Shown piece by piece: positions 11,699 to 64,000 of a stretch of 64,000 nt of DNA; the first letter of the stretch is position 1, and each line of letters begins with the position of its first letter. The stretch is from Verrucomicrobiota bacterium (GTDB lineage: Bacteria > Auribacterota > JABMQX01 > JAFGEW01), in NCBI GenBank assembly GCA_016931415.1, contig JAFGEW010000027.1, positions 4,550 through 68,549 on the forward strand, written 5' to 3'. Under the pieces are notes generated by a model that did no database searches, was not told the origin of the DNA, and was given only the letters and a program-made list of their open reading frames with translations. A program made the position numbers and the translations under genes.

Positions 11699-12772
11699 AT
11701 GCCGTCTCAATCGGACCACGGCGAGACCGCCGCCGGCCACCTGCAGCCTCAGGAACCACTCTCCCAGATCCCCGTCCTCCACATCCGTGCCCGCACGCTG
11801 CCCGAGGCGTGGGAACGCGCCGTCGCCGAGACCTGGCGAACGGGCGCCGCCATATGCACCCAGTACGACAAGCCCGGCGACCCGCCTAGCCGTGACGCCA
11901 CCGTCGTGATCGAGATCGCCGAGCCGCTCGGCGAGCCGCGCCTGCACCGTAGCTTCCCCGCCGGGCTCGAGGAGCTGGAGATCTACGTGCAGGAGGTCGT
12001 CTGGGGCGTGCACGACTCGTGGATTCGTCCGGACCAAGGCAAGTGGTCCTACACCTACCACCAGCGCCTGTTCGCCTACGACGTGATCGCCGATTTCCGG
12101 GACTCGCCCACGGGCGGCCCGTTCGGCGCCGTTGACCAAGTAGCTGCCGTGGTCGACGAGCTCGCCGCGTGCGGCTACACGCGCCGTGCCCAAGCGATTA
12201 CCTGGATGCCGACCGTTGACCTCGGCCACGCCGAGCCGCCGTGCCTCCAGCGCGTCTGGTGCCGGCTGATCGATGCTGCCCCCGCGCACCGCACTGACGA
12301 GGCCCCGCGCCTGGTGATGAACACACACTGGCGCTCGCGGGACGGCTACAAAGCGGCCTTCATGAACATGGTAGCGCTCACCACGCTCCAGGCCGAGATC
12401 GCCCGCCGGCTCGCCGAGCGCCTTGGCCGGCCCGTCGAACTCGGCCGCTACGTCGACATCTCCGACAGCTTCCACATCTACGGGAGCTACTTCGGCGAGA
12501 TCGAACGCAGCTTCCTCGCCCTCATGGCGCAGCGCTCGTTCGACGAGCGCACCTGGCGCACCGACGATGTGGCCGACCTGCTCCTCATGGGGCGCGTGCA
12601 GCTTCTCAACGGCAAACCTGGTGAACCGCCCGTCTCCGACAACGACGCGGCGCGTCTGTACTCAAGCCTTCCCCCATCGCACCGATGCTTAGTGGAGGAA
12701 TCGGTGCGCACCCGCATCGAGCGCGCACAGGCCGGCCCCCGCGCCGCAGGCGCAGGCGACGCCGGACTGTGA
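11699..12772 (+). CDS. Thymidylate synthase / dCMP-hydroxymethylase superfamily enzyme; divergent, with a 60-aa N-terminal extension.
   Basis: Active-site Cys (PPCLQRVWCRL) aligns with ThyA PPCHAFFQFYV. WRSRD aligns with QRSCD, FMNMVAL with FNIASYAL and DISDSFHIYGSY with GDTHLYSNH. ATG at 11699 sits 7 nt after GGGAGG. Confidence 0.65.
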   Translation: MPSQSDHGETAAGHLQPQEPLSQIPVLHIRARTLPEAWERAVAETWRTGAAICTQYDKPGDPPSRDATVVIEIAEPLGEPRLHRSFPAGLEELEIYVQEVVWGVHDSWIRPDQGKWSYTYHQRLFAYDVIADFRDSPTGGPFGAVDQVAAVVDELAACGYTRRAQAITWMPTVDLGHAEPPCLQRVWCRLIDAAPAHRTDEAPRLVMNTHWRSRDGYKAAFMNMVALTTLQAEIARRLAERLGRPVELGRYVDISDSFHIYGSYFGEIERSFLALMAQRSFDERTWRTDDVADLLLMGRVQLLNGKPGEPPVSDNDAARLYSSLPPSHRCLVEESVRTRIERAQAGPRAAGAGDAGL

Positions 12773-12866
12773 CCGGAGTGCTCTGCGACAGCTAGACGGA
12801 TTGGACAACACGAGACACCAGCACCATGCCGGCTCAGACGAAGCGTCGGCGAGCCCGAGCGTATCC

Positions 12867-14039
12867 ATGGCAACACGAGCCCAGGTTCTCATCATCGACG
12901 CCGACGTGACCACGCTGGAGGCGCTCCGCGTCGGCTTGGCGAAAAACGGCTTCACCGTCGAGGCCCATGCCGACGCCCATGAGGCCTACCGGGCGCTGGC
13001 GGCCCGGCCGTTCGACGTCGTCATCGCCAGCCTCGGCGTGCCCCAGGCCGAGGGCCGCAAACTGCTCGAACGCGTCAAGCAGGGCGACCCGACCGTGCCG
13101 GTCATTTTCCTGGCCAACGGCTCGGCCTGCTCGTCCGCGGTCGAGGCGCTGCGACAAGGCGCCTTCGATATCGTCGAGGGGCCCATCCGCGTACCCAAGG
13201 TCCGATCGCTTGTCGAGCGCGCCATCGAGGTGCGCCGCTTGCGCGAGGAAGTGGCCCGCCTGCGTGCAGAAATGCTCGCCGGCACCTGCCCCGACGAGCT
13301 CATCGGCCAAAGCCCCCCCCTCGTCGCCGTCCTCGAGGCGATCCGGCGTGCAGCGGCCGACACAGGCTGCGTGTTGCTCTGCGGCGCGCCGGGCACCGGC
13401 AAAGAGCTGGCGGCCCGCACCATTCACCGGCTCAGCACCCGGGCAAGCAAACCGTTTGTTGCCGTCGACTGCGCCGCCCTCAACGAGGCCTTCGTCGAGA
13501 GCGAGCTTTTCGGCCACGTGCGAGGCGCCTTCCCCGGCGCCTTCGCCGACCACGCCAGCCTGATCGAGACCGCGGATGGCGGCACGTTGTTCCTCAACTC
13601 GATCGACGTGCTGTCGAAAGCGGCCCAAGTACGCCTGCTCAAGGTCATCGACGAGCGCGTGATCCGTCCGCTCGGCTCGACCGCGTCGCGCCCCGTCGAG
13701 GCCCGGCTCGTGGCCGGCACCGCAACCGATCCTGCAACCGCCGCCGGCCGCCGCCGAGTCCGGGAGGATCTTCTTGCCCGCCTGAGCACGGTGCGCATCG
13801 CCCTTCCCGAGCTCAAGGAGCGGTCCGAGGACATCCCGCTACTCGCCAATTTCTTCGCCAAGACCATGGGCGCACGCCTCGGCACCCCGCCGCCTGCAAT
13901 CTCGCCCAAGGCGATGGCAATCCTCATGGATCGGCCCTGGCCAGGCAACGTCCGACAACTGCGCGACGTGGTTGAGCGCGCCGCCCTTCTGACCGACAGC
14001 GCTCAGATCTGCCCAGAACACCTCGGCGAGCCAACCTAG
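12867..14039 (+). CDS. Sigma-54-dependent response regulator (REC + AAA+ sigma-54 interaction domain). It ends at TAG before any DNA-binding domain.
   Basis: REC domain (VLIIDADV...DVVIASLGVP); Walker A GAPGTGKE; ESELFGHVRGAFPGA; GNVRQLRDVVERA. See the finding on the in-frame extension 14040..14279. Confidence 0.8.
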   Translation: MATRAQVLIIDADVTTLEALRVGLAKNGFTVEAHADAHEAYRALAARPFDVVIASLGVPQAEGRKLLERVKQGDPTVPVIFLANGSACSSAVEALRQGAFDIVEGPIRVPKVRSLVERAIEVRRLREEVARLRAEMLAGTCPDELIGQSPPLVAVLEAIRRAAADTGCVLLCGAPGTGKELAARTIHRLSTRASKPFVAVDCAALNEAFVESELFGHVRGAFPGAFADHASLIETADGGTLFLNSIDVLSKAAQVRLLKVIDERVIRPLGSTASRPVEARLVAGTATDPATAAGRRRVREDLLARLSTVRIALPELKERSEDIPLLANFFAKTMGARLGTPPPAISPKAMAILMDRPWPGNVRQLRDVVERAALLTDSAQICPEHLGEPT

Positions 14040-19379: not shown

Positions 19380-19760
<381 letters not shown>

Positions 19761-19763
19761 ACC

Positions 19764-20582
19764 ATGACTGACACGGTCTTGCGCGCCGACGCCTTGAGCG
19801 TCGGCTATCACGGCCGCCCGGTGCTCCACGCCATCTCGTTTGGCGTGCGCGAGGGCGAGTTCTGCGGCCTGCTCGGGCCGAACGGCTCAGGCAAGAGCAC
19901 GCTGCTCAAGGTGCTCGCCGGTCTGCTACGCCCATGGTCGGGCCGCGCCGAGCTGTTCGGCACCGACGTGCACGTGCTCTCGCCCAGGGCGATCGCCCGC
20001 CGCGTCGCCGTCATCCCCCAGGGTGTGAGCATGCTGTTCCCGTTCACGGTCGAGGAGATCGTCGCCATGGGGCGCCATCCGCACCTCGGCCGATTCCAGC
20101 GCGAAGGCCGCTTCGACCGTGACGCCGTCCGGCGCGCGCTTCACGAGACGGATACCGCCGCGCTCGTGGGCCGGCCTGTTGACGAGCTCTCCGGCGGCGA
20201 GCGCCAACGTGTCGTCATCGCCCGCGCGCTTGCCCAGGAGCCGGAGCTGCTGCTCCTTGACGAACCGACGACTCACCTCGACATCAACCATCAGGTCGAA
20301 GTCTTTGAGCTGCTCGCCCGCCTCAATCGCGAGCGTGGGCTTACGGTGCTTGCCATCTCGCACGACGTCAATGTCTGCGCCGAATACTGCCGCCGCCTCC
20401 TCGTGCTCAAGGACGGCCGCCTCGTCGGCGACGGCACACCGGCCGTGCTGCTCACGCCCGAGCTCGTGAGCCACGTCTACGGCGCGCCGGTCCACGTCCT
20501 CGCCAACCCGACCAGCGGTGCGCCCCTCGTCGCCGTCGACTCGTCTCGCGTCGGTGCCGATTCCCCCCGGGGCCGGCCATGA
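19764..20582 (+). CDS. ABC transporter ATP-binding protein (FecE/BtuD/HmuV-like).
   Basis: Walker A GPNGSGKST; signature LSGGERQRVVIARAL; Walker B LLLLDEPTTHLD. Starts 3 nt after the glnB stop. Confidence 0.85.
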   Translation: MTDTVLRADALSVGYHGRPVLHAISFGVREGEFCGLLGPNGSGKSTLLKVLAGLLRPWSGRAELFGTDVHVLSPRAIARRVAVIPQGVSMLFPFTVEEIVAMGRHPHLGRFQREGRFDRDAVRRALHETDTAALVGRPVDELSGGERQRVVIARALAQEPELLLLDEPTTHLDINHQVEVFELLARLNRERGLTVLAISHDVNVCAEYCRRLLVLKDGRLVGDGTPAVLLTPELVSHVYGAPVHVLANPTSGAPLVAVDSSRVGADSPRGRP

Positions 20583-21817
20583 TTGCCGACGTCGCGCCGT
20601 CGGACACGCGCCGCGTCGTGCTCGCCTTCGCCGCATGCAATTTCCTGTTCTCGTGCGCGAGCTGGATGCTCGTCGCTTTCCTCCCCATCTACCTGCGGAA
20701 CGACCTGGGCTGGTCGGCGGGGCGGATCGGCATGCTCATCGCCGCCTATATCGTGACAACCTTGTTGCTGATCGTGCCGCTGGGCTACCTGTCGGATCGC
20801 GTCTCGCCCAAGCGTCTCGTGCAGGCGGGCGCCGCACTCTACATCGTGTATGCCCTCCTGCTCACGTCCGTGCAAACGTTTGGCGCTCTGGTCGCAGCCC
20901 AGATCGTCGGTGGAATGGGCGAGGCCGTCATTCTCATCGTGCTGCCCGCGCTGCTCTACAAGGACCTTGGCGTGACAGGGCGGGGCCAGAACGTCGGCGC
21001 GTTCGTGGCCGGATCGATGTTCGGTTTCTCTATCGGGCCCATGGCCGCGTGGGCGCTGCTCGACGTCGCGGGCCTGGCGTATCGGGGCTTGTTCGGCATG
21101 GTCTGCGGCGTCGCCGTCGTGCTTGTGCTGGTCAGCACGTTGCTCAAGGACGCCCCGCCGCTGTCCATCCACCTCGCCGATTACCTGCGTGACATCAAGC
21201 GACGCGAGGTGCTCCTCGTCGTGATCGCCATCGCCGGCCTTGGTGTCCACTTCGCCCACGAACGAACGACCTACGCGCTGTTCCTGAAGAACGTGGCCCA
21301 GTTCTCACGTCTGGGCGTGGCGGGCATGTTCGGCGTGATCGGGATCTGGATGGGCGTGCTGTCCCTGCTCATGGGACGAATCTTCGACCGGAACTCGCAT
21401 GTCCTTGTGTTGATCGGCGTCGGCTTGGCGCTCTCGGGCGGGTTCCATGCCGCGACGCCGTACGTCCGGGGTTTCGGGAACCTCGTCGTGATGCGCGCCA
21501 TCCACACGATCGGCGACGTGATGGTGATCTTCTCCTACAGCGTGATCGTCGCTTCGATCTTCCCCCGGGCGCGCATGGGCGGCAACACGGGCTTCGCCCT
21601 CATGTTCCGTGCAGTCGGCGGCGTGCTCGGCGCGGCTGTCGCCGGCCTGCTCGACAAGGAATTCACGTCGCTTACGCCGTCGTTCGCGTTTGCCGGCGGA
21701 GCGATGATCGTCTGCGGCGCCGTGCTTCTGATCAACTGGCGCACCTTCCGCCGCGTCTCGCACGGCATCCGCGCCGATCTGAGGGGTCAGCCGGCCCCGC
21801 TGCCTCCCGCATCCTGA
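20579..21817 (+). CDS. MFS transporter (12 TM).
   Basis: 12 hydrophobic helices and a D-R-x-x-P-K-R-like loop (YLSDRVSPKRL). ATGA overlap with the ABC ATPase gene. Confidence 0.75.
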   Translation: MIADVAPSDTRRVVLAFAACNFLFSCASWMLVAFLPIYLRNDLGWSAGRIGMLIAAYIVTTLLLIVPLGYLSDRVSPKRLVQAGAALYIVYALLLTSVQTFGALVAAQIVGGMGEAVILIVLPALLYKDLGVTGRGQNVGAFVAGSMFGFSIGPMAAWALLDVAGLAYRGLFGMVCGVAVVLVLVSTLLKDAPPLSIHLADYLRDIKRREVLLVVIAIAGLGVHFAHERTTYALFLKNVAQFSRLGVAGMFGVIGIWMGVLSLLMGRIFDRNSHVLVLIGVGLALSGGFHAATPYVRGFGNLVVMRAIHTIGDVMVIFSYSVIVASIFPRARMGGNTGFALMFRAVGGVLGAAVAGLLDKEFTSLTPSFAFAGGAMIVCGAVLLINWRTFRRVSHGIRADLRGQPAPLPPAS

Positions 21818-22029
21818 CCGGCGTCGAGTTCCCTGAGCAGCTCGATCGTCCGGCGCGCCTCATCTTGGTCGAGGCGTTCGAGCGCGAACCCGGCGTGCAC
21901 GATAACGTACTCGCCCGGCTTCACGTCCGGCAGGAGCGTCAGGTTCACCGGTTGCTGCACGCCGCCCAGCTCAACGGTGCCCGCGGTGCCCTCGACCGAG
22001 ACGACGCGCATCGGGACGGCAAGGCACAT
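21787..22029 (-). CDS. hypC: Hydrogenase maturation factor HypC.
   Basis: N-terminus MCLAVPMRVVSV matches the HypC signature (MCLAIP). Start chosen at M26 of the ORF. Confidence 0.8.
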   Translation of the reverse strand: MCLAVPMRVVSVEGTAGTVELGGVQQPVNLTLLPDVKPGEYVIVHAGFALERLDQDEARRTIELLRELDAGQDAGGSGAG

Positions 22030-22031
22030 CC

Positions 22032-22691
22032 TCACGCCCCCTTCCGGCACAGCCGCCGCTCGAGCCACGCGTACCAGGCCTCCAGCCCCTCGCCCGTGCG
22101 GCACGAGGCGCGGATGATCTCGAGCTTCGGATTGATCTTGCGCGTCTCGCCGATCAGCGCTTCGACGTCGACGTCGCAGTACGGCGCGAGATCGAGCTTA
22201 TTGAGCACCATGGTCTCGGCGCGCCGGAACAGCGCCGGGTACTTCGCCGGTTTGTCCTGCCCTTCGGCAATTGAGAGCACGGCAACCACCGCCTCCTCGC
22301 CCAGCTTATAGCTCACCGGGCAGACGAGGTTGCCGACGTTCTCGATGAACACCACGTCGAGCGCCTCGAGCGGCAGGTTCTCCAGCGCGCGCCCCACCAT
22401 GTTCGCGTCGAGGTGGCAGCCGCCCTGCGTGTTGATCTGCACCACCGGCGCGCCAAGCGCCTGGATCCGCTCGGCGTCGCGCGAGGTGGCGATATCGCCC
22501 TCGATCACGCCGATGCGCCACGTTCCCTTGAAGTGCTCGAGCGTGCGTTCGAGCAGCGTCGTCTTGCCCGCGCCGGGCGAGCTGATGAAGTTGAGCGCAC
22601 GCACGCCGTGCTCGGCAAACCGCCGGGCGTTCGACTCGGCAAGCGCGTCGTTCGCTTTGAGTATCCCTTCAACGACTCTGATCTCAGTCAT
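22032..22691 (-). CDS. hypB: Hydrogenase nickel-incorporation GTPase HypB.
   Basis: P-loop SPGAGKTTLL; metal-binding GGCHLD; ENVGNLVCP; NKLDL. Confidence 0.85.
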   Translation of the reverse strand: MTEIRVVEGILKANDALAESNARRFAEHGVRALNFISSPGAGKTTLLERTLEHFKGTWRIGVIEGDIATSRDAERIQALGAPVVQINTQGGCHLDANMVGRALENLPLEALDVVFIENVGNLVCPVSYKLGEEAVVAVLSIAEGQDKPAKYPALFRRAETMVLNKLDLAPYCDVDVEALIGETRKINPKLEIIRASCRTGEGLEAWYAWLERRLCRKGA

Positions 22692-23055
22692 TGACGGCCT
22701 TCTCCTCGAGGTCCGTGTCGCCCTCGATCGAATCGAGGTACAGCTCGCTGCCGCGCACGACGTCAACGTTGACCGACCCGCACGCCGAGCAGACGAACGC
22801 GATGTCCTCAAGCTCGGTCTCTGTTCCGCACTCGGTGCAGCGCACCGTCACCGGCACCTCGATAATCTCCAATTGCGCCCCGTCGGCCACCGTGCCACGC
22901 CCGGCGACCTCGAGGGCGAACTCGAGCGCCTCGGGCACCACGTTGCCGAGTGCGCCGACGACGATCCGCAGCCGCGCCACGCGCACGAGCTGGTGCTCAG
23001 CCGCCGTCTTCTCGACGATGGCGAGCAGGTCCTCTGCAATCGAGAGCTCGTGCAT
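22684..23055 (-). CDS. hypA: Hydrogenase nickel-insertion protein HypA.
   Basis: MHELSIAEDLLAIVE N-terminus and C-terminal zinc ribbon CTECG...CSACGS. Confidence 0.8.
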   Translation of the reverse strand: MHELSIAEDLLAIVEKTAAEHQLVRVARLRIVVGALGNVVPEALEFALEVAGRGTVADGAQLEIIEVPVTVRCTECGTETELEDIAFVCSACGSVNVDVVRGSELYLDSIEGDTDLEEKAVND

Positions 23056-23243
23056 GTCGCCTCCAGAAACGCCTGCGCCCTGTTGTTCGACGGGATCTCC
23101 AGACCCCGTGCCACATCCGGCCGAAGCCTGCGCGGCACCGCGTCGGAGCTTGGCCTTGACCCGCCTGCGCCCGGCTGCCAGAATCCGCTGCACCGGGTTG
23201 GTTCAGTCTAGCACAGGCCCCCGCACTTGCACAGGAGGAAGCC

Positions 23244-24863
23244 ATGGGCGTCGAGATACGCCCCATCGAGGAGGGCGACATCCAGGGCGTCATCGCCCTG
23301 TACCGCAAGGTCTACGGCGACGACTTCCCGTTCAAGCAGTTCTATGAGCCGACTTGGGTGCGCAAGGGCATCTACGACGACGACTTGGTCTGGAGCGTCG
23401 CCGAGCTCGACGGTCGCATCGTCGGTTCAGCCGCCGTTATGGTCAACGTCGGCGACCACGACGACCTCATCGGCGAGTTCGGACGCCTCGTCGTCGACCC
23501 GGACGCCCGCGGCCACGGCGTCGGCCAAGCGCTCGGCCAGATGCGCGTCGACGCCGTGAGCCGGCACATCGAGTTCGGCTTCGCCGAGGCGCGCGCCGTC
23601 CATCCGGGCGCACAGAAGATCATGGATCGCCTCGGCTTTGCCGCGATCGGGTTCGAGCCGATGAAGTACGTGCTCCGCCGCCGCGAGAGCGTCGTGTTCT
23701 TCGGCCGGCACTTCGGCAATGCGGCCGCGCTGCGCAAGAACAATCCGCAGGTCATCAGCGCCGTGCACGCCCTCGGCTCGCGCGCCCTCGAGAACATGGG
23801 TCTCGAGCCCGACCTCATCGTCAAGGCCGAGGTCGAGCCTTATCCGTCAGATCTCGAGTACGAGATCGTCGAGCTCCAGGGCGCCTGGTCGCACCGCCTC
23901 CTGCGCATCGAGCAGGGCCGCGTCGTCAAGCCCGAGGTTTTCGGCGGCATGCACCTCGACTACGGCTACCTCAAGATCAAGGCGGCCGCTGCGACCTACC
24001 TCGTCGCGCGTGAGCACGGCGCTCCCGTCGGCGCCATCGGGTTCACCATCGACGACATCGACCGCAAGTGCCGCATCTTCGAGCTCATCGAGTTCGACGA
24101 CGCGGTCAAGGGCTTCCTCCTCCGCTGCGTCACGGAGCGCGCCGAGACCCAATACGGCTGCGACTATATCGAGGTTGACGTCAACGCCCATTCGCCGCGG
24201 CTCCAGTGCACGCTCGACCTGCTCGGCTATGTGCCGGTCGCCTACTGCCCGGCGATGGTGTTCCACACCGTCGAGCGGCTCGACGTGGTGAAGATGGCCA
24301 AGGTCGTCTGCGACTACGAGCTCGGCGGGGTCGACCTCATCGACAACGCGAAACCGCTCTTCGACATCGTCAACAACGCGATGGTGCAGAAGAAGAAGGG
24401 CGTCGAGATCGACTCGATCATGGCACGCATCGGCATCTTCGAAGGCCTCGACTGGGCCGGCATCGACCGGATCGGCCGCATCTGCACCGAGAAGCAGTTC
24501 AAGGCCGGCGAGACGGTTTTCGCCGAGGGCAGCGAGGGCGCCCAGATGTACGTGGTCACTCGCGGCTCGATCGAGATCCGCGATTCCTCCTCGGGCGACG
24601 GGACGGTCGCCGCCGTGCGTGCCGGCGAGATCTTCGGCGAGTTCGCTCTCATCGACGCGTTGCCGCGTTCGATGTCGGCCGTCTGCGTCGAAGACGCCAC
24701 CGTGCTGGTGATCGCCAAGCGCGATTTCGACCACCTCATGGCCTACCATCCCTCGATCGGCTCGCGCGTCTACCGCAACATCGCCGCGACGCTCGTCGGC
24801 CGCCTCCGCCGCACGAACGTCAGCCTCGCCCTGCATAAGCTGAAGTACGAGACGGAGGACTAA
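23244..24863 (+). CDS. Tandem GNAT-fold acetyltransferase fused to a C-terminal cyclic-nucleotide-binding domain.
   Basis: GNAT acetyl-CoA motif RLVVDPDARGHGVGQAL. The cNMP-binding domain has a phosphate-binding cassette, GEIFGEFALID...PRSMSAVC. Confidence 0.7.
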   Translation: MGVEIRPIEEGDIQGVIALYRKVYGDDFPFKQFYEPTWVRKGIYDDDLVWSVAELDGRIVGSAAVMVNVGDHDDLIGEFGRLVVDPDARGHGVGQALGQMRVDAVSRHIEFGFAEARAVHPGAQKIMDRLGFAAIGFEPMKYVLRRRESVVFFGRHFGNAAALRKNNPQVISAVHALGSRALENMGLEPDLIVKAEVEPYPSDLEYEIVELQGAWSHRLLRIEQGRVVKPEVFGGMHLDYGYLKIKAAAATYLVAREHGAPVGAIGFTIDDIDRKCRIFELIEFDDAVKGFLLRCVTERAETQYGCDYIEVDVNAHSPRLQCTLDLLGYVPVAYCPAMVFHTVERLDVVKMAKVVCDYELGGVDLIDNAKPLFDIVNNAMVQKKKGVEIDSIMARIGIFEGLDWAGIDRIGRICTEKQFKAGETVFAEGSEGAQMYVVTRGSIEIRDSSSGDGTVAAVRAGEIFGEFALIDALPRSMSAVCVEDATVLVIAKRDFDHLMAYHPSIGSRVYRNIAATLVGRLRRTNVSLALHKLKYETED

Positions 24864-24930: not shown

Positions 24931-26295
24931 ATGCGCTACCACGACGCGATCGACAGGCTATACACCATCCGCATGTTCGGCGCGAAGCTCGGGCTGGCAA
25001 ACACTCGCCATCTGCTCGACGCGCTCGGCCACCCGGAACAGCGCTATCGCATCGTCCACGTAGCCGGCACGAACGGCAAAGGCTCGGTCGCGGCGCTCGT
25101 TGCCTCCGCACTTAAGGCCGCCGGCCACACGGTCGGCCTGTTTACCTCGCCGCACATCTCGTCATTTCGTGAGCGGATGCAGGTCAATGGCCAGTCCGCA
25201 AGCGAGGCCGAGATCGCCGCGCATCTCGAACGCCTCCTGCCCATCGTTGACGATATGGCACGGCGCGATGACGTCACCTCCCCCACCTTCTTCGAAGTCG
25301 TCACGGCCATGGCCGCCGATCTTTTCGCCGCGCGGGGCTGCGACCTCGCCGTCTTCGAGGTCGGCATGGGCGGCCGCCTCGATGCGACCAACGCGCTGCC
25401 GGCCGCGGTCTCGGCCATCACGAGCATCGGCCTCGACCACACCGAATGGCTCGGCTCGACCATCCCCGAGATTGCGTTCGAGAAAGCCGGCATCATCAAG
25501 CCCGGCGTGCCTGTCGTGACCGACGCGCTCCCGGACGCCGCGCGCGACGTCGTCCGCTGCGCCGCCGCCGAGCGCCGGGCTCCGCTCATCGAGGGGGGCC
25601 GCGACATCGTCGTCGAGACCCGTACGCCGTCTCGCGAGGGCCAGACACTCACCGTCCGTACGCCCAACGGCCGCTATGACAACCTGCACCTTGGCCTGCA
25701 CGGCGCGCACCAGGCCGGGAACTGCACCGTCGCCCTCGGCGTCTTAGAGTCGCTGGCTGATCAGGGGGTCGATGTGCCGCGCGAGGCGATCGTCTCGGGC
25801 GTGCGCACCGCGCGCTGGCCCGGGCGCTTCGAGATCGTTCCGGGCGATCCGGCGTTCATCCTGGACGCGGCGGCCAATCCCCCCGCGGCCCAGGTGCTCG
25901 CCGCGACGCTCGGCGAGTTCCTTGCCCCCGGCGAGCGGCTCGTGCTCGTTACCGGCGCGCTCAGGGACAAGGACACGGTGCGCATGTGCCGTGCGCTCGT
26001 CCCACGCGCCGACGAGGTCATCGTTACCGAGCCGGCGAGCACGCGGCGGCTGCACGCCGATGAGCTGTACTACACCGCCGGCCGCTATGCGCTCGGTTGC
26101 CCGGTCCGCGTTGTCAACGGGCTCGACGCGGCGCTCGAGACCGCCGCCGCCCGGCTGCGCGGGCGACAGGGCTTCGTCCTGGTCACCGGTTCGATCTTTC
26201 TGCTCGCCCGGGCACGCGAGATGCTCGGTATCGCCGAGGCAGCCCAGGACTTCCGCCTCACGGAAGTCCTTGCCACACCCCAGGCGAAACGGTAA
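24931..26295 (+). CDS. folC: Folylpolyglutamate synthase / dihydrofolate synthase.
   Basis: VAGTNGKGS P-loop and Mur-ligase-family layout of about 450 aa. Confidence 0.85.
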   Translation: MRYHDAIDRLYTIRMFGAKLGLANTRHLLDALGHPEQRYRIVHVAGTNGKGSVAALVASALKAAGHTVGLFTSPHISSFRERMQVNGQSASEAEIAAHLERLLPIVDDMARRDDVTSPTFFEVVTAMAADLFAARGCDLAVFEVGMGGRLDATNALPAAVSAITSIGLDHTEWLGSTIPEIAFEKAGIIKPGVPVVTDALPDAARDVVRCAAAERRAPLIEGGRDIVVETRTPSREGQTLTVRTPNGRYDNLHLGLHGAHQAGNCTVALGVLESLADQGVDVPREAIVSGVRTARWPGRFEIVPGDPAFILDAAANPPAAQVLAATLGEFLAPGERLVLVTGALRDKDTVRMCRALVPRADEVIVTEPASTRRLHADELYYTAGRYALGCPVRVVNGLDAALETAAARLRGRQGFVLVTGSIFLLARAREMLGIAEAAQDFRLTEVLATPQAKR

Positions 26296-26353
26296 CGAAG
26301 GGGCGTCGCATTCACAGCAAGCCGGTCATTGCATCGAGGAGACTGACGACACC

Positions 26354-28195
26354 ATGTGCGGCATCGTTGGGTATATCGGCGCGCGCGACGCGCAAGACAT
26401 CCTGATCACCGGGCTCAAGCGGCTCGAGTACCGCGGCTACGACTCGTGCGGCATCGCCGTGCTCAGCCCGGCCGGCGAGATCGTCGTCGCCAAGAAGGAG
26501 GGACGCATCTCCAACCTGGAAGCCGCCCTTGCGGACCACCGCCTCGCCGGCACAACCGGCATCGGCCACACGCGCTGGGCCACCCACGGTCGTCCAAGCG
26601 ACGTCAACGCCCACCCGCATCGCGACGGCTCGGGCAGCGTCGTGCTCGTCCACAACGGGATCATCGAGAACTACGGCGAACTCAAGGAAGCGCTCCGTCT
26701 CAAGGGCCACGCCTTCGAATCCGAGACCGACACCGAAGTGGTCGCCCATTTGATCGAGGACGAGTTCGAGAACGGCGCCGCCACCCTGCTCGAGGCCACC
26801 CGCACCGCCCTCAAGCGCGTGCGCGGCGCCTACGCGCTCTGCATCATGCGCACGAGCGAGCCCGACCGCCTTATTGCCGCGCGCTCCGGTGCGCCGTTGC
26901 TCATGGGCGTTGGCGATGGCGAGTACTTCCTTTCGAGCGACGCCGCGCCCATCATCCCCTACACGCGCCGCGTGCTCTACCTTAACGACGAGGAGCTGCT
27001 CGAGATTCACCGCGACGGCTTCACCAAGATCAGCCTCGACGGCGAGCCCCTCGAGAGCACGATCTCGCAGATCACCTGGACGGCCGAGGAAGCCGAGAAG
27101 GGCGGCTACGAGACCTTCATGCTCAAGGAAATCTACGAACAGCCGGCCGCGCTCCGCCGCACGTTGAGCAGCCTGATCGACTCGAAAACCGGCGAGCTCC
27201 TCGTCGAGAACGCACCGTTGACGGCCGAACGCCTCCGCTCGCTTACCGACATCTCGGTCGTCTCGTGCGGCACCGCCCTCCACGCCGGCATGGTCGGTAC
27301 CTACCTCGCCAACGAGCTGTGCGGCCTCGACGTGCATACCGAGTGGGCGAGTGAGTTCCGCTACCGCCGCCTCAAGCTCAACCCGCAGCGCATGGTGCTC
27401 GTGATCTCGCAGTCGGGCGAAACCGCCGACACGCTCGCCAGCCTCCGCGCGGCCAAGGCGCTCGGCGCCCCCGTGCTCGGGATCATCAACGTGCGCGAGA
27501 GCACGATCGCCCGCGAGAGCGACCACGTGCTCTATACTCAAGCCGGCCCGGAGATTGGCGTCGCCTCGACCAAAGCCTACACGAGCCAGATCGCGGCTAT
27601 GGTTGTCTTTGCGCTGCACCTCGCGCGTGTGCGCGGCGAGATGAGCGATGACGACTACAATCGTTTTATGCGCGACCTGCTCGCCGTGCCCGACGTGATC
27701 GAGCGCATGCTGGCCGACATCACGACAATCAAGCGCATCGCCGACCGCGTCTACGATGCGCGGAGCTCGCTCTATCTCGGCCGTGGTTTCAATTTTCCGT
27801 CGGCGCTCGAGGGCGCGCTCAAGAACAAAGAGATCTCCTACATGCACTGCGAGGGCTATGCCGCCGGCGAGATGAAGCACGGGCCGATCGCGTTGATCCA
27901 GGCGCGTTTCCCCATCTTCAGCGTCTGCACCAAAGGCAGCACGTACGAGAAGATGGTGTCGAACATCAAGGAGGTCGGCGCGCGCAACGGCTACATCGTC
28001 ACCATTGCTACCGAGGGCGACGAACACATCAAGACGATCAGCGACGACGTGATCTACGTGCCCGAGGTACGCGAGGAGCTCTCGCCGCTCGTCAACGCCG
28101 TGCCGCTGCAACTGCTCGCTTACCACATCGCACGCATCCGTGGCTGCGACATCGACAAGCCGCGTAACCTGGCCAAGAGCGTCACGGTGGAGTAA
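26354..28195 (+). CDS. glmS: Glutamine--fructose-6-phosphate aminotransferase.
   Basis: MCGIVGYIG N-terminal Cys, two SIS domains and the C-terminal VTVE. Confidence 0.95.
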   Translation: MCGIVGYIGARDAQDILITGLKRLEYRGYDSCGIAVLSPAGEIVVAKKEGRISNLEAALADHRLAGTTGIGHTRWATHGRPSDVNAHPHRDGSGSVVLVHNGIIENYGELKEALRLKGHAFESETDTEVVAHLIEDEFENGAATLLEATRTALKRVRGAYALCIMRTSEPDRLIAARSGAPLLMGVGDGEYFLSSDAAPIIPYTRRVLYLNDEELLEIHRDGFTKISLDGEPLESTISQITWTAEEAEKGGYETFMLKEIYEQPAALRRTLSSLIDSKTGELLVENAPLTAERLRSLTDISVVSCGTALHAGMVGTYLANELCGLDVHTEWASEFRYRRLKLNPQRMVLVISQSGETADTLASLRAAKALGAPVLGIINVRESTIARESDHVLYTQAGPEIGVASTKAYTSQIAAMVVFALHLARVRGEMSDDDYNRFMRDLLAVPDVIERMLADITTIKRIADRVYDARSSLYLGRGFNFPSALEGALKNKEISYMHCEGYAAGEMKHGPIALIQARFPIFSVCTKGSTYEKMVSNIKEVGARNGYIVTIATEGDEHIKTISDDVIYVPEVREELSPLVNAVPLQLLAYHIARIRGCDIDKPRNLAKSVTVE

Positions 28196-33856: not shown

Positions 33857-36800
33857 CTAGAACTCCGACAGGACCCTGTAGTAGTATTCGACGAGCGCCT
33901 GGTACTCGGGCGGGCACGTCTCGTCCTTCGGCAGGAGGACCTTGCGTGCCTTGACCAGCACGTCGATGCGCTGAACGACCGTGTCGAGCGCCTGCTCGAG
34001 CTGCTCGGCGGCCGTCTCGATCCGCTCGGTGTCTTCCATGCCCGGATCGGTCGACGTGTGCTCGCGGCTCAGGATCTCGCCTGCCTTCTTCGCGTGTTCG
34101 CCCGCCGTCTTGGTCTCGGCGTTCTCGCTGAGGTTCTCACCTTCGGCGGTAAGCTGCTCGGCGAGGCTGTCCATCTCCTCGTCACTCGGCTCGCCGTTGC
34201 GCATCGACTCGAGCTGCTCGCGCGCCTCGGTGAGCGCCGTGGCCGATTCCCACAGCCGCTCGAGCTCCGACGTGGTCAGAATCTTGTACGCGCGCTCGAG
34301 ATCGGCCCGCGCCGCATCGATCCGCTCGAGGACGCGGTCCTGCTTCGCCATCGCATCGTCCGCACGCCCCTCGACGATGTCCGTGCGACTCCCCTCGACG
34401 GCCGACTTGAACTCCTCGGAGCCGAGCGTCTCCTTCGCCTGCTCGATGCGTTCGCGCGCCTCGCTGCCGGCCGTGCCGGCCTGTTCGACCACGGTCGCAA
34501 GCTTATCCTCGAGCGCCCCCGCATCGTCGCCGACCCACTTCTGCTGCAGGGCCGTCTTCTCGCGCTGGCCCTCGGTCGGATCGTCCTGCGTCAGCGCATC
34601 GGTGCGCTCGCGCACGCGCTTCTCGTCGCTCTTGAGCCGGTCGGCGTCGCCGATCGCCTGGGCAAGGTCCTCGAGCAGCGCCTGGCCGTAGAGCTTCTGC
34701 AGGTCCTCCAGCCCTTTGGCCAGCCGCTCCTCGGCAAGCTCGCCCGACGACGAGGCGTTTGCCAGGTTGCCCTCGCTCAGGTAGCGCTCGGCCGTCGCCA
34801 TCTCGCGCCGCGCCTCGCGGAAGTCCTTCGAATCCGGCTGGTACTTGTCGCCCGTGGCCAGATCGTCGAGCAGCGTCACGATCTCCTGTACGAGCGTACC
34901 GGCCGCGCCTTGCTTCTCGGAAAGCTGCGCGGCCTTTGTGCGCTTCTGGTCCGCGCTCGGCGTCGGGTCAGCCTCGATCTCCTCCTGCGCGCGGTTCAGG
35001 CCGCGCTGCTCGGCGACCGCCTCCTTCGCTTTGGCAATCGCTTCGAGGAGCTTCTCCTTCTCGGTCTTCGACAGCGAGCGCAGCGCCTCGGCCGCCAGGT
35101 TGGCCGCCTCGCGAAGGTCCTTGCGCGCCTCTTCCTGCTCGGGCTGCGCGCCGGAGATGTCGCCGCTGCCCAGCTTCTCGACGGCGCGCTCCATCGCGTC
35201 CTGGATGTCGCCCGACGCAAGCTGCTCGGCGACCTCCTTGACCTTCTCGCCCGCCTCCGGATGTTCATCACGCACCTTCGGCGCGATTGCCTCGGCGTCC
35301 TTGGCCAGATCATCGATCGTCCCCTTGAGGCTCTCCTGCTGCCGGCCCGTCTCGGCCAGATTCGAGACATCGCCCGCCGAATCCGCCGCGTCTTCCTTAA
35401 GCAACTCCTGGAAGCGGCTCGCCTCGTCGAGATCGCGCGCAAGCCGCTCAAGCGAGCGTTCGAGGTTGCGTTGCTCGGCGGCGGCGATCTCCTGCATCAC
35501 CGTGTCGAGTAGCCGCTCGGCGTCGACGCCCTCCTTGAAGCCTTCCTCGTAGCTCGGCTTGTCGAGCTGCTCGGCTGCCTCATCCATCTTCGCGCTTGCC
35601 TTCTCGGCGCTCGTCGGCGCCTTGCTGCTCAGGCTCGGATCCTTCTTCGCCATCTCGGCAAGCTCGCTGGCGGCGGCCTTCGTCTCGTCGGCGAGTTGAC
35701 GCTGGCGCTGCGGGAGACCCTGGCCCTGGCCCTCGCCTTCGCCCTTGCCCTCGCCCTCGCCCTGGCCCTCCTTCGACTGCGTGCTCTCGCTGCCGCTCTG
35801 CGGCTGGGTGCTGGGCTGCGCGCCGGGTTTCTGCTGTTCGGCCTGGCTCGCCATTTCCTCGTTCAGGTCGTGCTGGCGATCCTTGAGCTCCTCGATCTCG
35901 CTCTTCTGCTCCTCGAGCTTCTCGCGGCGCTCCTCCTCGCGCTCGCGGCCCATCTCGGCCGCCTTCTTCTGCGCCAGTTCGAGTGCTTGGCGGAGTTGCT
36001 CTTTCTTCTGCGCTTCGGACATGCTGCTCGAGTCCTGCGAGACGAGATGCTCAAGGTCGGCCAACGCCTTGTAGAGCGCCCCGAGCGCCTGCTGCTCTGG
36101 ATCCGTGGCGCCCTGTGTGTCGAGAGCGTGCAGCAACAGAACCGCGGCGTCCATAAAGTCAGCGGCACGCTCGATCGCCTGCACCTTGCCGATCTCGTTC
36201 TCCATCTCCAGCGCAAGCAGCTCGGCCTGGAGCGTCACGGCGAAGTCACGCGCAAGCAACGCATTGTCGAACTCGAGCGAGGCAATCGACATGATCCGCT
36301 CCTCGACCTCCGGCTCGATCGGATCCGTCAACGCGTTGAGCACACCGAACGTCTTCTGGATCACCTCCTTCTGAATCCGGATCAGCTCGCCAAGCACGTC
36401 GAGCTTCGGCGCCATCGGCAGTCCCGAACCCTCCTTGAGCCGGTAGCGTTCCTCGTACGGCATGATCTCGAGAAAGTAGACGGTCGATCGCCCCTGCTTG
36501 GGCGACGGCGCGATCGCGTCGTTGTCGATGGCGAAGACGTAGTAGCTCACGATGTCGTGCGGCTCGAGCGGGTAGTCCTCGAGCATGATCACCGCCTCAC
36601 CCTGCGCGTTGAGCGTGCGCGTGTCGAATTCCTGCACGATCTGGCGTTGCTCGCCCTCCATGCGCACGTTGAGCGCCAGGCCGATCTTCGAGATGCCGTA
36701 GTCGTCGGCCACCTCGAACTCGATCGGCACCTCGCTCGTCTTGGTCACCTTCATGTCTTGGCCCGGATGGATGATGCGCACGTCGGGCACGGTGTCTTTG

Positions 36801-37960
36801 AGGGCGGTGATCGCGTACTGCTTGCGCTGACGGTTCACGTGCCCGTACTCGTCCTCGATCACGATCTCGTACAGGCCGTCTTGCTCGACGGTGAATGCGC
36901 CGCTCGCGTTGCGTCCATTCTCGCTGATCGCGAGCGGCACCACCGTGCCGTCGGCGCGCACAAGCCGCGCGCGATCGAGCTTCGTGTTCGCATGCGCGTT
37001 GAGCGTCACCTTCGTCCCGCGCAACGCCACGATGTCGCCCTTCTTGATCGTCTGCTTCGGGAGCTGCGTATAGGCCGGGAAGAGGAGCTCGGCACTGATC
37101 GCGTCGACTTTCGGGTCGGGATAGACGATCACCTCGTAGGTGGGCGAGGTCGCGTCGCCCGCCTCGACGTAGTATGAGAACGGGCTCGAGAGCCGCGTGA
37201 ACTCGAACGAGGCCGACATGTGCCGCACCCGGCCCCGTTCCAGGTCGAGCTTCTCGCTGATCCACTCGCCCTTGTCGTTCTCGAAATGGATCGTCGCCTC
37301 GTCCGGGATGCGGCCCGAGAGCTCGGCGTAGATCGTCAGGTCGCTCAGCTCCTCGCACTCGACGCTGCCCGGCTGCACGTCGAGTTGCGTGAAGGTCCGC
37401 TCCTGCCATGGCGTGATCGCGCGCAGCAGCGCCGTCCGCCCGTTCGGCACCAGCCCGGCGAACAGCCCCAGCCCAACGACGAGCGCCACGAGCGCCACAA
37501 ACGGCCACCGTACCCGCGCCCAGCGCACGCTGCGTCGCAGCGGCAGCACGCTGATCCGCTCGCGCGTCTGCCCCGCAAGCGCCTCCTTCATCTCGTCGCT
37601 CGTGTAGTGCGTGCGTCCGTACGGATCGACCGTGTACTCGACCGTCGTCGCGAGTGTCGCCCGCAGATCGGGGAACGTCTCCTCGACATCCCACGAGAGC
37701 TTGAGGATGCCGAGCCACCGCAGGATCGGCACGACGACGAGCCCGGCGACAAGCACGAGCCCGCTCAGCACGAGCCCGGCGAACAACAGCGTGCGCAGCC
37801 ATTGCGCAACCGAGACGTGGAGGTCAACAGATGACAACACGAGCGAGCCGAGGCACACGACGGCCAGCACGACGGCCGCGCCGAACGTGACGTAGAACCA
37901 CCGCTTGCTCCCCTGGAGCCCGCGCAGCCTTCGCTCGATGTATCTCACGTCGTCGTTCAT
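33857..37960 (-). CDS. Giant coiled-coil membrane protein (1367 aa): two N-terminal TM helices, a central beta-rich region and a roughly 800-aa E/K/A/Q-rich coiled coil. It is the terminal gene of the Bat-like operon and may belong to the DUF4175 family.
   Basis: ATG (MNDDVRY) preceded by AGGAGAAAGG, 16 nt after the stop of the VWA protein gene. The upstream 200 codons of the ORF-track call are Ser/Arg/Cys-rich and unlikely to be coding. Confidence 0.65.
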   Translation of the reverse strand: MNDDVRYIERRLRGLQGSKRWFYVTFGAAVVLAVVCLGSLVLSSVDLHVSVAQWLRTLLFAGLVLSGLVLVAGLVVVPILRWLGILKLSWDVEETFPDLRATLATTVEYTVDPYGRTHYTSDEMKEALAGQTRERISVLPLRRSVRWARVRWPFVALVALVVGLGLFAGLVPNGRTALLRAITPWQERTFTQLDVQPGSVECEELSDLTIYAELSGRIPDEATIHFENDKGEWISEKLDLERGRVRHMSASFEFTRLSSPFSYYVEAGDATSPTYEVIVYPDPKVDAISAELLFPAYTQLPKQTIKKGDIVALRGTKVTLNAHANTKLDRARLVRADGTVVPLAISENGRNASGAFTVEQDGLYEIVIEDEYGHVNRQRKQYAITALKDTVPDVRIIHPGQDMKVTKTSEVPIEFEVADDYGISKIGLALNVRMEGEQRQIVQEFDTRTLNAQGEAVIMLEDYPLEPHDIVSYYVFAIDNDAIAPSPKQGRSTVYFLEIMPYEERYRLKEGSGLPMAPKLDVLGELIRIQKEVIQKTFGVLNALTDPIEPEVEERIMSIASLEFDNALLARDFAVTLQAELLALEMENEIGKVQAIERAADFMDAAVLLLHALDTQGATDPEQQALGALYKALADLEHLVSQDSSSMSEAQKKEQLRQALELAQKKAAEMGREREEERREKLEEQKSEIEELKDRQHDLNEEMASQAEQQKPGAQPSTQPQSGSESTQSKEGQGEGEGKGEGEGQGQGLPQRQRQLADETKAAASELAEMAKKDPSLSSKAPTSAEKASAKMDEAAEQLDKPSYEEGFKEGVDAERLLDTVMQEIAAAEQRNLERSLERLARDLDEASRFQELLKEDAADSAGDVSNLAETGRQQESLKGTIDDLAKDAEAIAPKVRDEHPEAGEKVKEVAEQLASGDIQDAMERAVEKLGSGDISGAQPEQEEARKDLREAANLAAEALRSLSKTEKEKLLEAIAKAKEAVAEQRGLNRAQEEIEADPTPSADQKRTKAAQLSEKQGAAGTLVQEIVTLLDDLATGDKYQPDSKDFREARREMATAERYLSEGNLANASSSGELAEERLAKGLEDLQKLYGQALLEDLAQAIGDADRLKSDEKRVRERTDALTQDDPTEGQREKTALQQKWVGDDAGALEDKLATVVEQAGTAGSEARERIEQAKETLGSEEFKSAVEGSRTDIVEGRADDAMAKQDRVLERIDAARADLERAYKILTTSELERLWESATALTEAREQLESMRNGEPSDEEMDSLAEQLTAEGENLSENAETKTAGEHAKKAGEILSREHTSTDPGMEDTERIETAAEQLEQALDTVVQRIDVLVKARKVLLPKDETCPPEYQALVEYYYRVLSEF
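35719..35771. repeat. In-frame hexanucleotide simple repeat (gccct[cg] x9) encoding GEGEGKGEGEGQGQG within the giant gene.
   Basis: Read directly from the sequence. Confidence 0.7.
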
Positions 37961-37976
37961 CGCATCCGCCTTTCTC

Positions 37977-63390: not shown

Positions 63391-64000
63391 ATGCCTGACT
63401 ACGATGTCGTCGTGATCGGTTCCGGCCCCGCGGGCTACGCGGCGGCCTTTCGCGCCGCCCAGCTCGGCGGCCGCGTCGCCATGGTCGAGAAGGACCTCGT
63501 CGGCGGCACCTGCCTCAACCGCGGGTGCATCCCGACCAAGTCGCTGCTCGAGGCGACCGCCGTGCTCGATCACATGAACCACGCCGAAACGTTCGGCCTC
63601 GCCTGCGACAATCCGCGCCCCGACATGGTCAAACTCATCGAGCGCAAGGAGCGCCATGTCGCCAAGCTGCGCGGCGGCGTGGAGCAGGTCGCCAAGGGCC
63701 TCGGCATCGAGATCGTGCGCGGCACAGGCACGCTCGCCGGCCAGCGCAAAGTGAGCGTCGCCGGCAACGACGGCGGCGTACGCGAGCTGACGGCGAAGGC
63801 GATCATCATCGCGAGCGGCTCCGAGCCCCTCGAGCTCAAGGCGCTGCCGTTCGACCACATGACCGTGCTCTCGAGCACAAGCATCCTTGAATTGCGCGAG
63901 GTGCCGGGCTCGCTGCTCATCATCGGCGGCGGCTACATCGGTTGCGAGTTCGCCACCGTCTTCGCCTCGCTCGGCACGAAGGTCACCATCGTCGAGATGC
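63391..64000 (+). CDS. lpdA: Dihydrolipoyl dehydrogenase, 3'-partial (runs off the window end).
   Basis: MPDYDVVVIGSGPAGYAAA...GGTCLNRGCIPTK redox-active disulfide. CAGGAGGA SD. Not in the ORF track because no stop codon falls within the window. Confidence 0.85.
   Translation, partial: MPDYDVVVIGSGPAGYAAAFRAAQLGGRVAMVEKDLVGGTCLNRGCIPTKSLLEATAVLDHMNHAETFGLACDNPRPDMVKLIERKERHVAKLRGGVEQVAKGLGIEIVRGTGTLAGQRKVSVAGNDGGVRELTAKAIIIASGSEPLELKALPFDHMTVLSSTSILELREVPGSLLIIGGGYIGCEFATVFASLGTKVTIVEM

Follow-up and report, generated by a model that had tools for sequence, protein, structure and literature searches.

Positions 23244-24863 (+ strand) of a 64-kb window, that is, the whole stretch of contig JAFGEW010000027.1 from a Verrucomicrobiota bacterium that was analysed here, encode a 539-residue protein in which two GNAT folds in tandem are followed by a C-terminal cyclic-nucleotide-binding (CNB) domain. 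The sequence suggests that this protein is, on balance, probably a cytoplasmic N-acetyltransferase that depends on acyl-coenzyme A (acyl-CoA) and is controlled in its activity by a cyclic nucleotide, for which cyclic AMP (cAMP) is the likeliest candidate. The open reading frame (ORF list and translation) runs from ATG to TAA exactly where an earlier note, made from the DNA letters alone, had placed it, and its N-terminus agrees with the N-termini of its homologues. A protein 100% identical to it (P0001) is already deposited under the generic name 'MAG: GNAT family N-acetyltransferase [Verrucomicrobia bacterium]' (MAG, metagenome-assembled genome); the family is widespread and uncharacterised. 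In the open-access literature, published GNAT classifications included, no description of a GNAT-GNAT-CNB layout was found.

The N-terminal domain, GNAT1, is a canonical GNAT, as that note had proposed. Three Pfam models lie within residues 20-136: Acetyltransf_1 matches residues 20-132 (E=4.7e-10; 40.2 bits against a gathering threshold of 20.7), Acetyltransf_7 matches residues 51-100 (39.1 bits against 27), and Acetyltransf_10 is above its threshold too. The string that had been quoted for this domain, RLVVDPDARGHGVGQAL, is found at residues 81-97, and the loop for the pyrophosphate of acetyl-CoA, R89-G-H-G92-V-G94, is intact; in the family alignment G92 is kept in 63 of 68 members and G94 in 67. 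Taken singly, GNAT1 has its best fold matches in RimI, SpeG and PAT/ArsN (Foldseek, root-mean-square deviation (rmsd) 2.4-3 A). Pfam scores above threshold, the pyrophosphate loop and a mixed alpha/beta fold are all present, which places the protein in the GNAT superfamily.

The region that follows is silent in domain searches: residues 140-395 have no Pfam or NCBIfam match, and GNAT2 has no Pfam match even at E<=10. The earlier note had described here a second, degenerate GNAT at residues 180-370. The fold is supported by AlphaFold, Foldseek and HHalign, with bounds that must be redrawn to about 206-356. AlphaFold2, run with the alignment of 68 family sequences, gave a full-length model containing two GNAT topologies and the CNB domain (mean predicted local distance difference test score (pLDDT) 87.7, predicted template modelling score (pTM) 0.80; for residues 1-365 alone, pLDDT 91.7 and pTM 0.90), in agreement with the three-domain reading. 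In both models residues 207-354 repeat the order of residues 4-156, which is strand-helix-helix-strand-strand-strand-helix-strand-helix-strand-strand. The HHalign profiles of GNAT1 and GNAT2 are colinear across 145 columns (E=1.1e-3), and they set the GNAT1 loop RGHGVG against a shortened DDAVKG in GNAT2. 'Degenerate' is correct for this acetyl-CoA loop and for nothing else: GNAT2 is a strongly constrained domain and no decaying relic, with the highest mean column identity of the 68-member alignment (0.71, against 0.66 for GNAT1, 0.59 for the CNB domain and 0.53, the lowest, for the linker 357-395).

When the model of the core was searched with Foldseek, the top ranks were taken by proteins that are themselves tandem GNATs (2wpx, 9en3, 9emp, 7q3a, 3n7z, 2hv2 and 6rft), with alignments of 370-400 columns that cover both domains. 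Identity in these alignments is 9-14% and rmsd 9-15 A; therefore these proteins have the fold class in common with the core but differ from it in family and in inter-domain geometry. A search of PDB sequences with the GNAT-GNAT core gave no match below E=0.013, and Pat, the mycobacterial cAMP-dependent acetyltransferase, is absent from the matches; the weak matches are to small-molecule acetyltransferases, with MshD at E=0.9, which is not significant.

The C-terminal domain was correctly recognised by the earlier note as a cyclic nucleotide (cNMP)-binding domain with an intact phosphate-binding cassette. Pfam cNMP_binding matches residues 417-501 (E=1.3e-19; 70.4 bits against a gathering threshold of 27.5), and the quoted cassette string GEIFGEFALIDALPRSMSA occupies residues 461-479. 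The closest solved relatives are Corynebacterium GlxR and Mycobacterium tuberculosis (Mtb) CRP, both with phmmer against PDB (E about 4e-17, residues 389-529) and with Foldseek (GlxR 4byy and Mtb CRP 3d0s, E about 5e-13, 31% identity, rmsd 2.1-2.7 A); over all the sensor matches, which include GlxR, CRP and protein kinase A (PKA), rmsd is 2.1-2.9 A. The alignment reaches through the dimerisation helix of CRP, and an RLRRTN motif is common to the window protein and GlxR. A helix-turn-helix DNA-binding domain is lacking, because residue 539, immediately past the C-helix, is the last of the chain; the NCBIfam CRP, FtrB and FixK models match only the sensor part, with scores far under their cutoffs. 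By the cassette test FGEFALIDALPRSMSA, both the G-E for the ribose 2'-OH and the R-[ST/A]-A for the phosphate are found. In the alignment of the window's subfamily, G465 and R475 are kept in 68 of 68 members, E466 and P474 in 67 of 68. The essentially invariant cassette, together with the cyclase and phosphodiesterase-like neighbours of archaeal orthologues described below, makes cyclic-nucleotide sensing plausible.

At least 120 full-length public homologues align with the window protein at 42-88% identity across 94-100% of its length, and of 185,579 species-representative genomes that were scanned, 142 encode a relative. Phylum spread and gene neighbourhoods were compared in the best 80 loci from these 142 genomes; loci of relatives are numbered with an L below. 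The 80 represent 12 or more bacterial phyla together with archaea of the Thermoplasmatota, the groups being Verrucomicrobiota, Armatimonadota, Nitrospirota, Planctomycetota, Myxococcota, Gemmatimonadota, Chloroflexota, Kiritimatiellae, Melainabacteria/Cyanobacteria, Rhodothermales, Nitrospinaceae, Alphaproteobacteria, Acidimicrobiia and the Thermoplasmatota; in all 80 loci the match extends over the whole protein, except in a few truncated by contig ends. Almost all sources are MAGs, the sole cultured organism being Candidatus (Ca.) Uabimicrobium amorphum.

The sensor is not present throughout the family. An exhaustive search of 1.84 billion proteins with the middle region alone gave 204 cluster representatives, all confined to this family, in which the middle domain always starts about 150 residues past the N-terminus. 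About 39 of the 204 are 500-585 residues long and about 20 are 373-409 residues long. Every short form that was checked consists of a GNAT and the middle domain without CNB and ends naturally about 35-45 residues after GNAT2; such CNB-less versions of the core measure 376-409 residues. Therefore the tandem-GNAT core forms an enzyme family of its own, to which one branch has added the sensor. One metagenomic protein (P0121, 802 residues) carries two tandem-GNAT cores head to tail, hence four GNAT folds, and no CNB.

An alignment of 77 full-length genes splits the family into two subfamilies. Subfamily A includes the window protein, other Verrucomicrobiota, Armatimonadota, Nitrospirota, all the Thermoplasmatota and a few others, and it is recognised by F113, E138, Y142, N167, D273, K275, G290, F464 and R475, which are identical in most members. 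The window protein is colinear with these homologues over its full length and reads FEYNDKGFR at the signature positions, identical to the Verrucomicrobiota, Armatimonadota and Nitrospirota members and to all Thermoplasmatota orthologues; it belongs to subfamily A. In subfamily B, position 113 is L or I, 138 is L, 142 is H, L or S and 290 is R. Residues E78, R81, R117, H120, R147, E148, R164, N166, P168, D190, Y200, R221, D270, Q321, P336, E344, R345, D347, G465 and E466 are shared by A and B; therefore both have the catalytic machinery in common, and a part of the pocket as well. Within the linker between the two GNAT domains, R164 and P168 are invariant across both subfamilies and L163 and N166 nearly so, and N167 is largely His in subfamily B.

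A strong link to cAMP comes from the gene neighbourhoods of orthologues, and it does apply to the subfamily of the window protein. In 11-12 species of Thermoplasmatota the GNAT-GNAT-CNB gene lies in a conserved cluster composed of genes for a FecR protein and a class III cyclase with a CHASE2 domain (these two divergent), a 96-residue protein, the tandem-GNAT protein, a metallo-beta-lactamase (MBL)-fold protein and a Pyr_redox_2 oxidoreductase (L002 1792-9211, L004 2392-12079, L006 1578-8992, and also L022-L034). The cyclases carry FFSDIRGFT, DKYMGD and DYTAMGDNVNLASR, and their specificity pair is Lys/Thr. In class III cyclases a Lys/Thr pair indicates ATP as the substrate, and the archaeal enzyme is predicted to be an adenylyl cyclase. 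The MBL-fold protein has precomputed matches to two families, Apyc1 and class II phosphodiesterase; a Pfam scan reached generic MBL models only, and the nearest solved relative is PhnP, a cyclic-phosphate diesterase (E=3e-6). Judged from these sequences, the cluster resembles a full cAMP set of writer, reader and eraser. Outside the archaea, an MBL protein encoded after a Nitrospirota orthologue passes the Pfam threshold for class II cAMP phosphodiesterases (57.5 bits against 23.7), and a Fimbriimonadaceae orthologue has a cyclase and a FecR gene close by. De novo clustering of neighbours brought out no partner that recurs in bacteria of the window's subfamily, and the archaeal partner genes are absent from the window, save a generic Pyr_redox homologue at 63400-63996.

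Several features of these orthologous loci were observed in passing. The 96-residue protein upstream of the archaeal orthologues (L002 4858-5148, L004 5541-5831, L006 4675-4965) is highly conserved, with the motifs EWNYAALIKF and REEPITFFAKRGL and no Pfam match, and it could be a partner or a substrate. At L004 7794-9431 an AMP-binding acyl-CoA synthetase gene is convergent with the GNAT gene, and at 12349-13560, where the ORF runs off the locus, there is a pyridoxal phosphate-dependent decarboxylase fused to a cNMP-binding domain (757 residues by precomputed annotation). In a Nitrospirota MAG (L018 6541-9380 and 12081-12845) a hydrogenase pair lies directly upstream of the orthologue, and downstream lies the MBL gene whose product passes the class II threshold; the pair is composed of a [NiFe]-hydrogenase small subunit (Oxidored_q6) to which two cNMP-binding domains are fused and, next, the gene of the large subunit.

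The two subfamilies also differ in their neighbours. At 38 loci, whose GNAT proteins are 35-42% identical to the window protein, an M20 amidohydrolase gene directly adjoins the GNAT gene: in 28 it is of the M20D type, on the same strand and 3-115 bp upstream, and in the other 10 of the M20A type (CPG2/ArgE). The M20D enzyme scores 338 bits on TIGR01891 'amidohydrolase', and its nearest named models are CpsA and DoeB2 (N-acetyl-diaminobutyrate deacetylase), both under cutoff. These paired loci fall within L040-L091 (for example L048 8781-9998, L075 755-1951 and L040 8027-8632), and a 202-residue flavin reductase accompanies the subfamily B gene in six loci. Thirty-six members of subfamily B have an M20 neighbour against none of about 30 members of subfamily A. 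About 39 of 45 subfamily B members have His in place of the cassette Arg, and the 2x2 table of His against M20 adjacency (34, 5, 2, 27) gives a Fisher p of about 1e-11, uncorrected for phylogeny. Since the linkage is confined to subfamily B, it informs the chemistry of the family and is not directly transferable to the window protein; as direct evidence for that protein it was rejected, the pocket and cassette residues being different. A link to folate, suggested by folC beside the window gene and CPG2-like M20A elsewhere, was dropped: the folC adjacency represents one closely related clade, and the M20D neighbour fails the models for p-aminobenzoyl-glutamate hydrolase.

A working model can be proposed from these observations. 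GNAT1 would bind acetyl-CoA and carry out catalysis, with E78 (strand 4) and E115 and H120 (strand 5, helix 4) as candidate residues. GNAT2 would pack on GNAT1 and contribute much of a highly specific acceptor pocket, as inactive domains do in other tandem GNATs. The ligand, putatively cAMP, would sit in the G465-E466/R475-S476 cassette and probably touch the LRRTN of the C-terminal helix; its binding may reposition the two helices that flank the sensor, and probably also a CRP-like dimer interface, and this movement would open or close the acceptor site, so that the nucleotide could be either an activator or an inhibitor. As for the acceptor, we give a little under even chances to a small amine of defined identity, or else a short peptide or N-terminus, and still prefer this to protein lysines of the Pat kind. 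We lean in this direction because the residues of the pocket hardly vary between archaea and bacteria, because the closest folds are small-molecule tandem GNATs and because the sister subfamily is paired with amidohydrolases of the N-acyl-amino-acid type.

Some observations weigh against control by a cyclic nucleotide, and most of them also speak for the opposite idea, namely that the C-terminal domain binds another ligand or only dimerises, leaving the enzyme without second-messenger gating. Many domains of the CRP/FNR type take ligands other than cyclic nucleotides. The replacement of the cassette Arg by His in subfamily B, where the CNB domain is retained, means that this domain can persist without canonical cNMP chemistry and therefore that cNMP gating cannot be assumed for the whole family. 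The one departure from the cassette in the window's own clade is two positions after its Arg, where the residue is Met; it is Ala in 58 of 68 members. Of the 13 loci linked to cyclases, which come from essentially three lineages, 11 belong to a single archaeal order. No class III cyclase, phosphodiesterase or other CNB gene is present in the 64-kb window, and the hypCBA/folC/glmS neighbourhood of the gene is uninformative on function. We nevertheless judge a sensor without cNMP gating to be quite improbable, given that in the window's subfamily the cassette keeps its G-E and P-R-S residues in all or nearly all members, that the domain closely resembles genuine cAMP binders, including their adenine-contacting C-helix motif, and that orthologues adjoin cyclase and phosphodiesterase-like genes.

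The other alternatives concern the reaction. The only characterised output of a CNB-GNAT fusion is protein acetylation under cAMP control, and the window protein might likewise, as the earlier note implied, acetylate lysines of acyl-CoA synthetases or of other proteins when cAMP activates it; Eis, a tandem GNAT, acetylates proteins as well, and the synthetase gene of L004 lies directly beside an orthologue. This is a minority view for us, since the GNAT domains have no specific similarity to Pat, the best fold relatives of the core are small-molecule enzymes, and a two-domain pocket conserved to this extreme degree is unusual for protein acetyltransferases of broad specificity. The AMP-binding neighbour, moreover, is found at one locus of the window's subfamily, its tblastn relatives in three more all belonging to the other subfamily. 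In Bacillus subtilis, pairs of a GNAT and an M20D enzyme (SnaA/SndA and ScmL/ScmP) act in N-acetyl 'protect and deprotect' pathways (PMC10221552), and with this precedent the M20 genes adjoining the 38 loci, as well as the flavin reductase in six, may indicate that an amino-acid derivative is acetylated and then deacetylated. For the window protein such a pathway is unlikely: the M20 linkage is confined to subfamily B, which differs at E138, Y142, K275, G290 and R475, and the window's 64 kb contain no M20 gene. Finally, the donor specificity of a GNAT is unreadable from its sequence, and one of the top fold matches, the histidine acetyltransferase 9emp, was crystallised with N-myristoyl-histidine. 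The donor of GNAT1 could accordingly be a longer acyl-CoA, succinyl-CoA or, as in Fem-type enzymes, an aminoacyl-tRNA, in which case 'acetyltransferase' would be a misnomer; we give this little credence, as the pyrophosphate-binding loop for CoA donors is intact and Fem-type enzymes are absent from the top fold matches. An acyl-CoA-dependent N-acetyltransferase set by a cyclic nucleotide is the reading that we retain.

The features of the gene are collected in Table 1.

Table 1. Position and basis of the features recognised in and directly upstream of the tandem-GNAT gene (window coordinates)
Feature	Position	Strand	Basis
Complete gene, tandem GNAT followed by C-terminal cNMP-binding domain	23244..24863	+	ORF list, translation, identical P0001
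Sigma-70-like promoter match, TTGACC-17 nt-CAGAAT with TG, in the hypA/GNAT divergent intergenic region	23156..23184	+	Consensus match only
Shine-Dalgarno AGGAGG, 5 nt 5' of ATG	23233..23238	+	Upstream sequence
GNAT1, residues 1-158, predicted catalytic	23244..23717	+	Pfam, AlphaFold topology, fold matches, invariant residues
Acetyl-CoA pyrophosphate-binding loop DPDARGHGVGQAL, Q/R-x-x-G-x-G/A motif R89-G94	23496..23534	+	Motif, conservation
Inter-GNAT linker, residues 159-205, L163-R164-x-N166-N167-P168 and helix 172-184	23718..23858	+	Alignment, AlphaFold
GNAT2, residues 206-356, GNAT fold without acetyl-CoA loop	23859..24311	+	DSSP topology, Foldseek, HHalign, conservation
GNAT2 segment EFDDAVKGFLL, position of the lost acetyl-CoA loop	24090..24122	+	HHalign
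Linker and long helix, residues 357-395 (helix 367-394), from core to sensor	24312..24428	+	AlphaFold secondary structure
Cyclic-nucleotide-binding beta-barrel, residues 396-502	24429..24749	+	Pfam, phmmer vs PDB, Foldseek
Phosphate-binding cassette GEIFGEFALIDALPRSMSA, G465-E466 and R475-S476	24624..24680	+	Motif, conservation
C-terminal helix, residues 503-538, LRRTN motif	24750..24857	+	GlxR 3r6s/4byy alignment through residue 529, AlphaFold

The one sigma-70-like site found compares with 0.3 expected from shuffling. The gene is divergent from hypA-hypB-hypC; folC follows 67 bp 3' of it, without a terminator-like site found between the two genes, and then glmS. This arrangement is kept in Verrucomicrobiota relatives at 77-83% identity. 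The products of hypC, hypB and hypA (21787-23055, - strand) are [NiFe]-hydrogenase maturation proteins; homologues of the structural hydrogenase genes of L018 were not found in the window, and a hydrogenase link built on hypCBA and on the CNB-hydrogenase of L018 was rejected, as it does not recur elsewhere. On the 5' side of the hyp genes, at 19422-21817 (+), genes for a P-II signal protein, an ATP-binding cassette (ABC) ATPase and a major facilitator superfamily (MFS) transporter stand in a row, and their order is retained in the Verrucomicrobiota relatives L007 and L012-L014. The glmS ORF as listed (25772-28195, +) is over-extended, the conserved N-terminus MCGIVGY being located at 26354 (613 residues), 59 nt past the folC stop. 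Further away, at 33857-38560 (-), lies a 1567-residue ORF whose long central part is of low complexity, is rich in E, A, K and Q and may be a coiled coil; the ORF coincides with a strong AT-skew anomaly (-0.42) at 34-36 kb.

Direct control of acetyltransferases by cAMP is known from essentially one lineage, that of mycobacterial Pat, which shapes the classification of bacterial acetylation; the protein described here would be a second and independent solution, built on a tandem-GNAT scaffold with a CRP-type sensor at the opposite end of the protein. Archaeal GNATs usually consist of a single domain, as reported in 2025 (PMC12607858). Tentatively, and against the balance of probability, the window protein may correspond, as its orthologue in bacteria, to the reader of a Thermoplasmatota cAMP cassette complete in itself, in which the CHASE2 adenylyl cyclase and FecR are joined by the tandem-GNAT-CNB effector and a class II-like phosphodiesterase. 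If this were true, it would define a new class of second-messenger effector whose output is the acetylation of a specific metabolite or peptide, and a dedicated cAMP effector in Archaea, with subfamily B as an offshoot that lost the cassette Arg and became coupled to M20 deacylases. A working archaeal pathway of cyclase, effector and phosphodiesterase would also raise the interest of the whole family: the gene, placed between a predicted writer and a predicted eraser, offers a tractable entry to archaeal cAMP signalling, and the Arg-type and His-type sensors represent a natural comparison for the repurposing of cNMP domains.

Among the known systems, mycobacterial MtPat (Rv0998) and MsPat (MSMEG_5458) are those with which the expected function invites comparison. 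In the published division of GNATs into types I-V, cAMP-GNATs form type III only and tandem GNATs type V (Eis) only (PMC8556138, PMC4964394), and the GNAT-GNAT-CNB layout, which none of the five has, would extend this scheme. What is shared with Pat is the allosteric control of acetyl transfer by cAMP, a likeness that is expected only. The mycobacterial cAMP-GNATs have an N-terminal cNMP domain and a C-terminal GNAT (PMC8556138, PMC4964394), so that the order is inverted in the window protein, as had been claimed from the sequence: its sensor is C-terminal, it has two GNAT folds against one in Pat, its GNAT domains have no specific relationship to that of Pat, and its sensor is CRP/GlxR-like with a long terminal helix. 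The NCBIfam Pat model NF058543 scores 34.8 bits against a cutoff of 460 and aligns residues 398-513 with model positions 3-118 only, that is, with the CNB part. Since the core is unrelated to Pat and sensorless forms exist, the fusion is independent, and the origin that the earlier note had proposed is borne out by this partial match, by the core without a Pat match, by the CNB-less cores and by the CRP/GlxR type of the sensor.

With the type V enzymes (M. tuberculosis Eis, M. abscessus Eis2 6rft and B. anthracis 3n7z) the window protein shares a three-part layout, with an active GNAT at the N-terminus, a GNAT in the middle that lacks cofactor binding and one more domain at the C-terminus; this last is a cNMP sensor here, whereas in Eis it is an oligomerisation region of beta-sheet and helices. 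Acetyltransf_9 reaches 20.4 bits, below its threshold of 25, and no other Eis-specific Pfam family is matched; identity to Eis-like structures is 9-10% with rmsd 9-11 A, so the inter-domain geometry differs. The best overall folds are those of small-molecule tandem GNATs, that is, the clavulanate-pathway protein 2wpx, the histidine acetyltransferase 9en3 and MAB_4324 (7q3a), at E about 1e-11 to 1e-10; identity is 12-14%, rmsd is high, and they lack a sensor domain. In this group, to which mycothiol synthase MshD also belongs, two folds serve a single active site and one domain is silent; the active domain is C-terminal in MshD, whereas it is predicted to be N-terminal in the window protein. 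The nearest relatives of the sensor, Corynebacterium glutamicum GlxR and Mtb CRP, have in common with it the PRS/T-x-SAVC cassette and the RLRRTN helix motif, but their sensor precedes a DNA-binding domain, whereas that of the window protein follows an enzyme.

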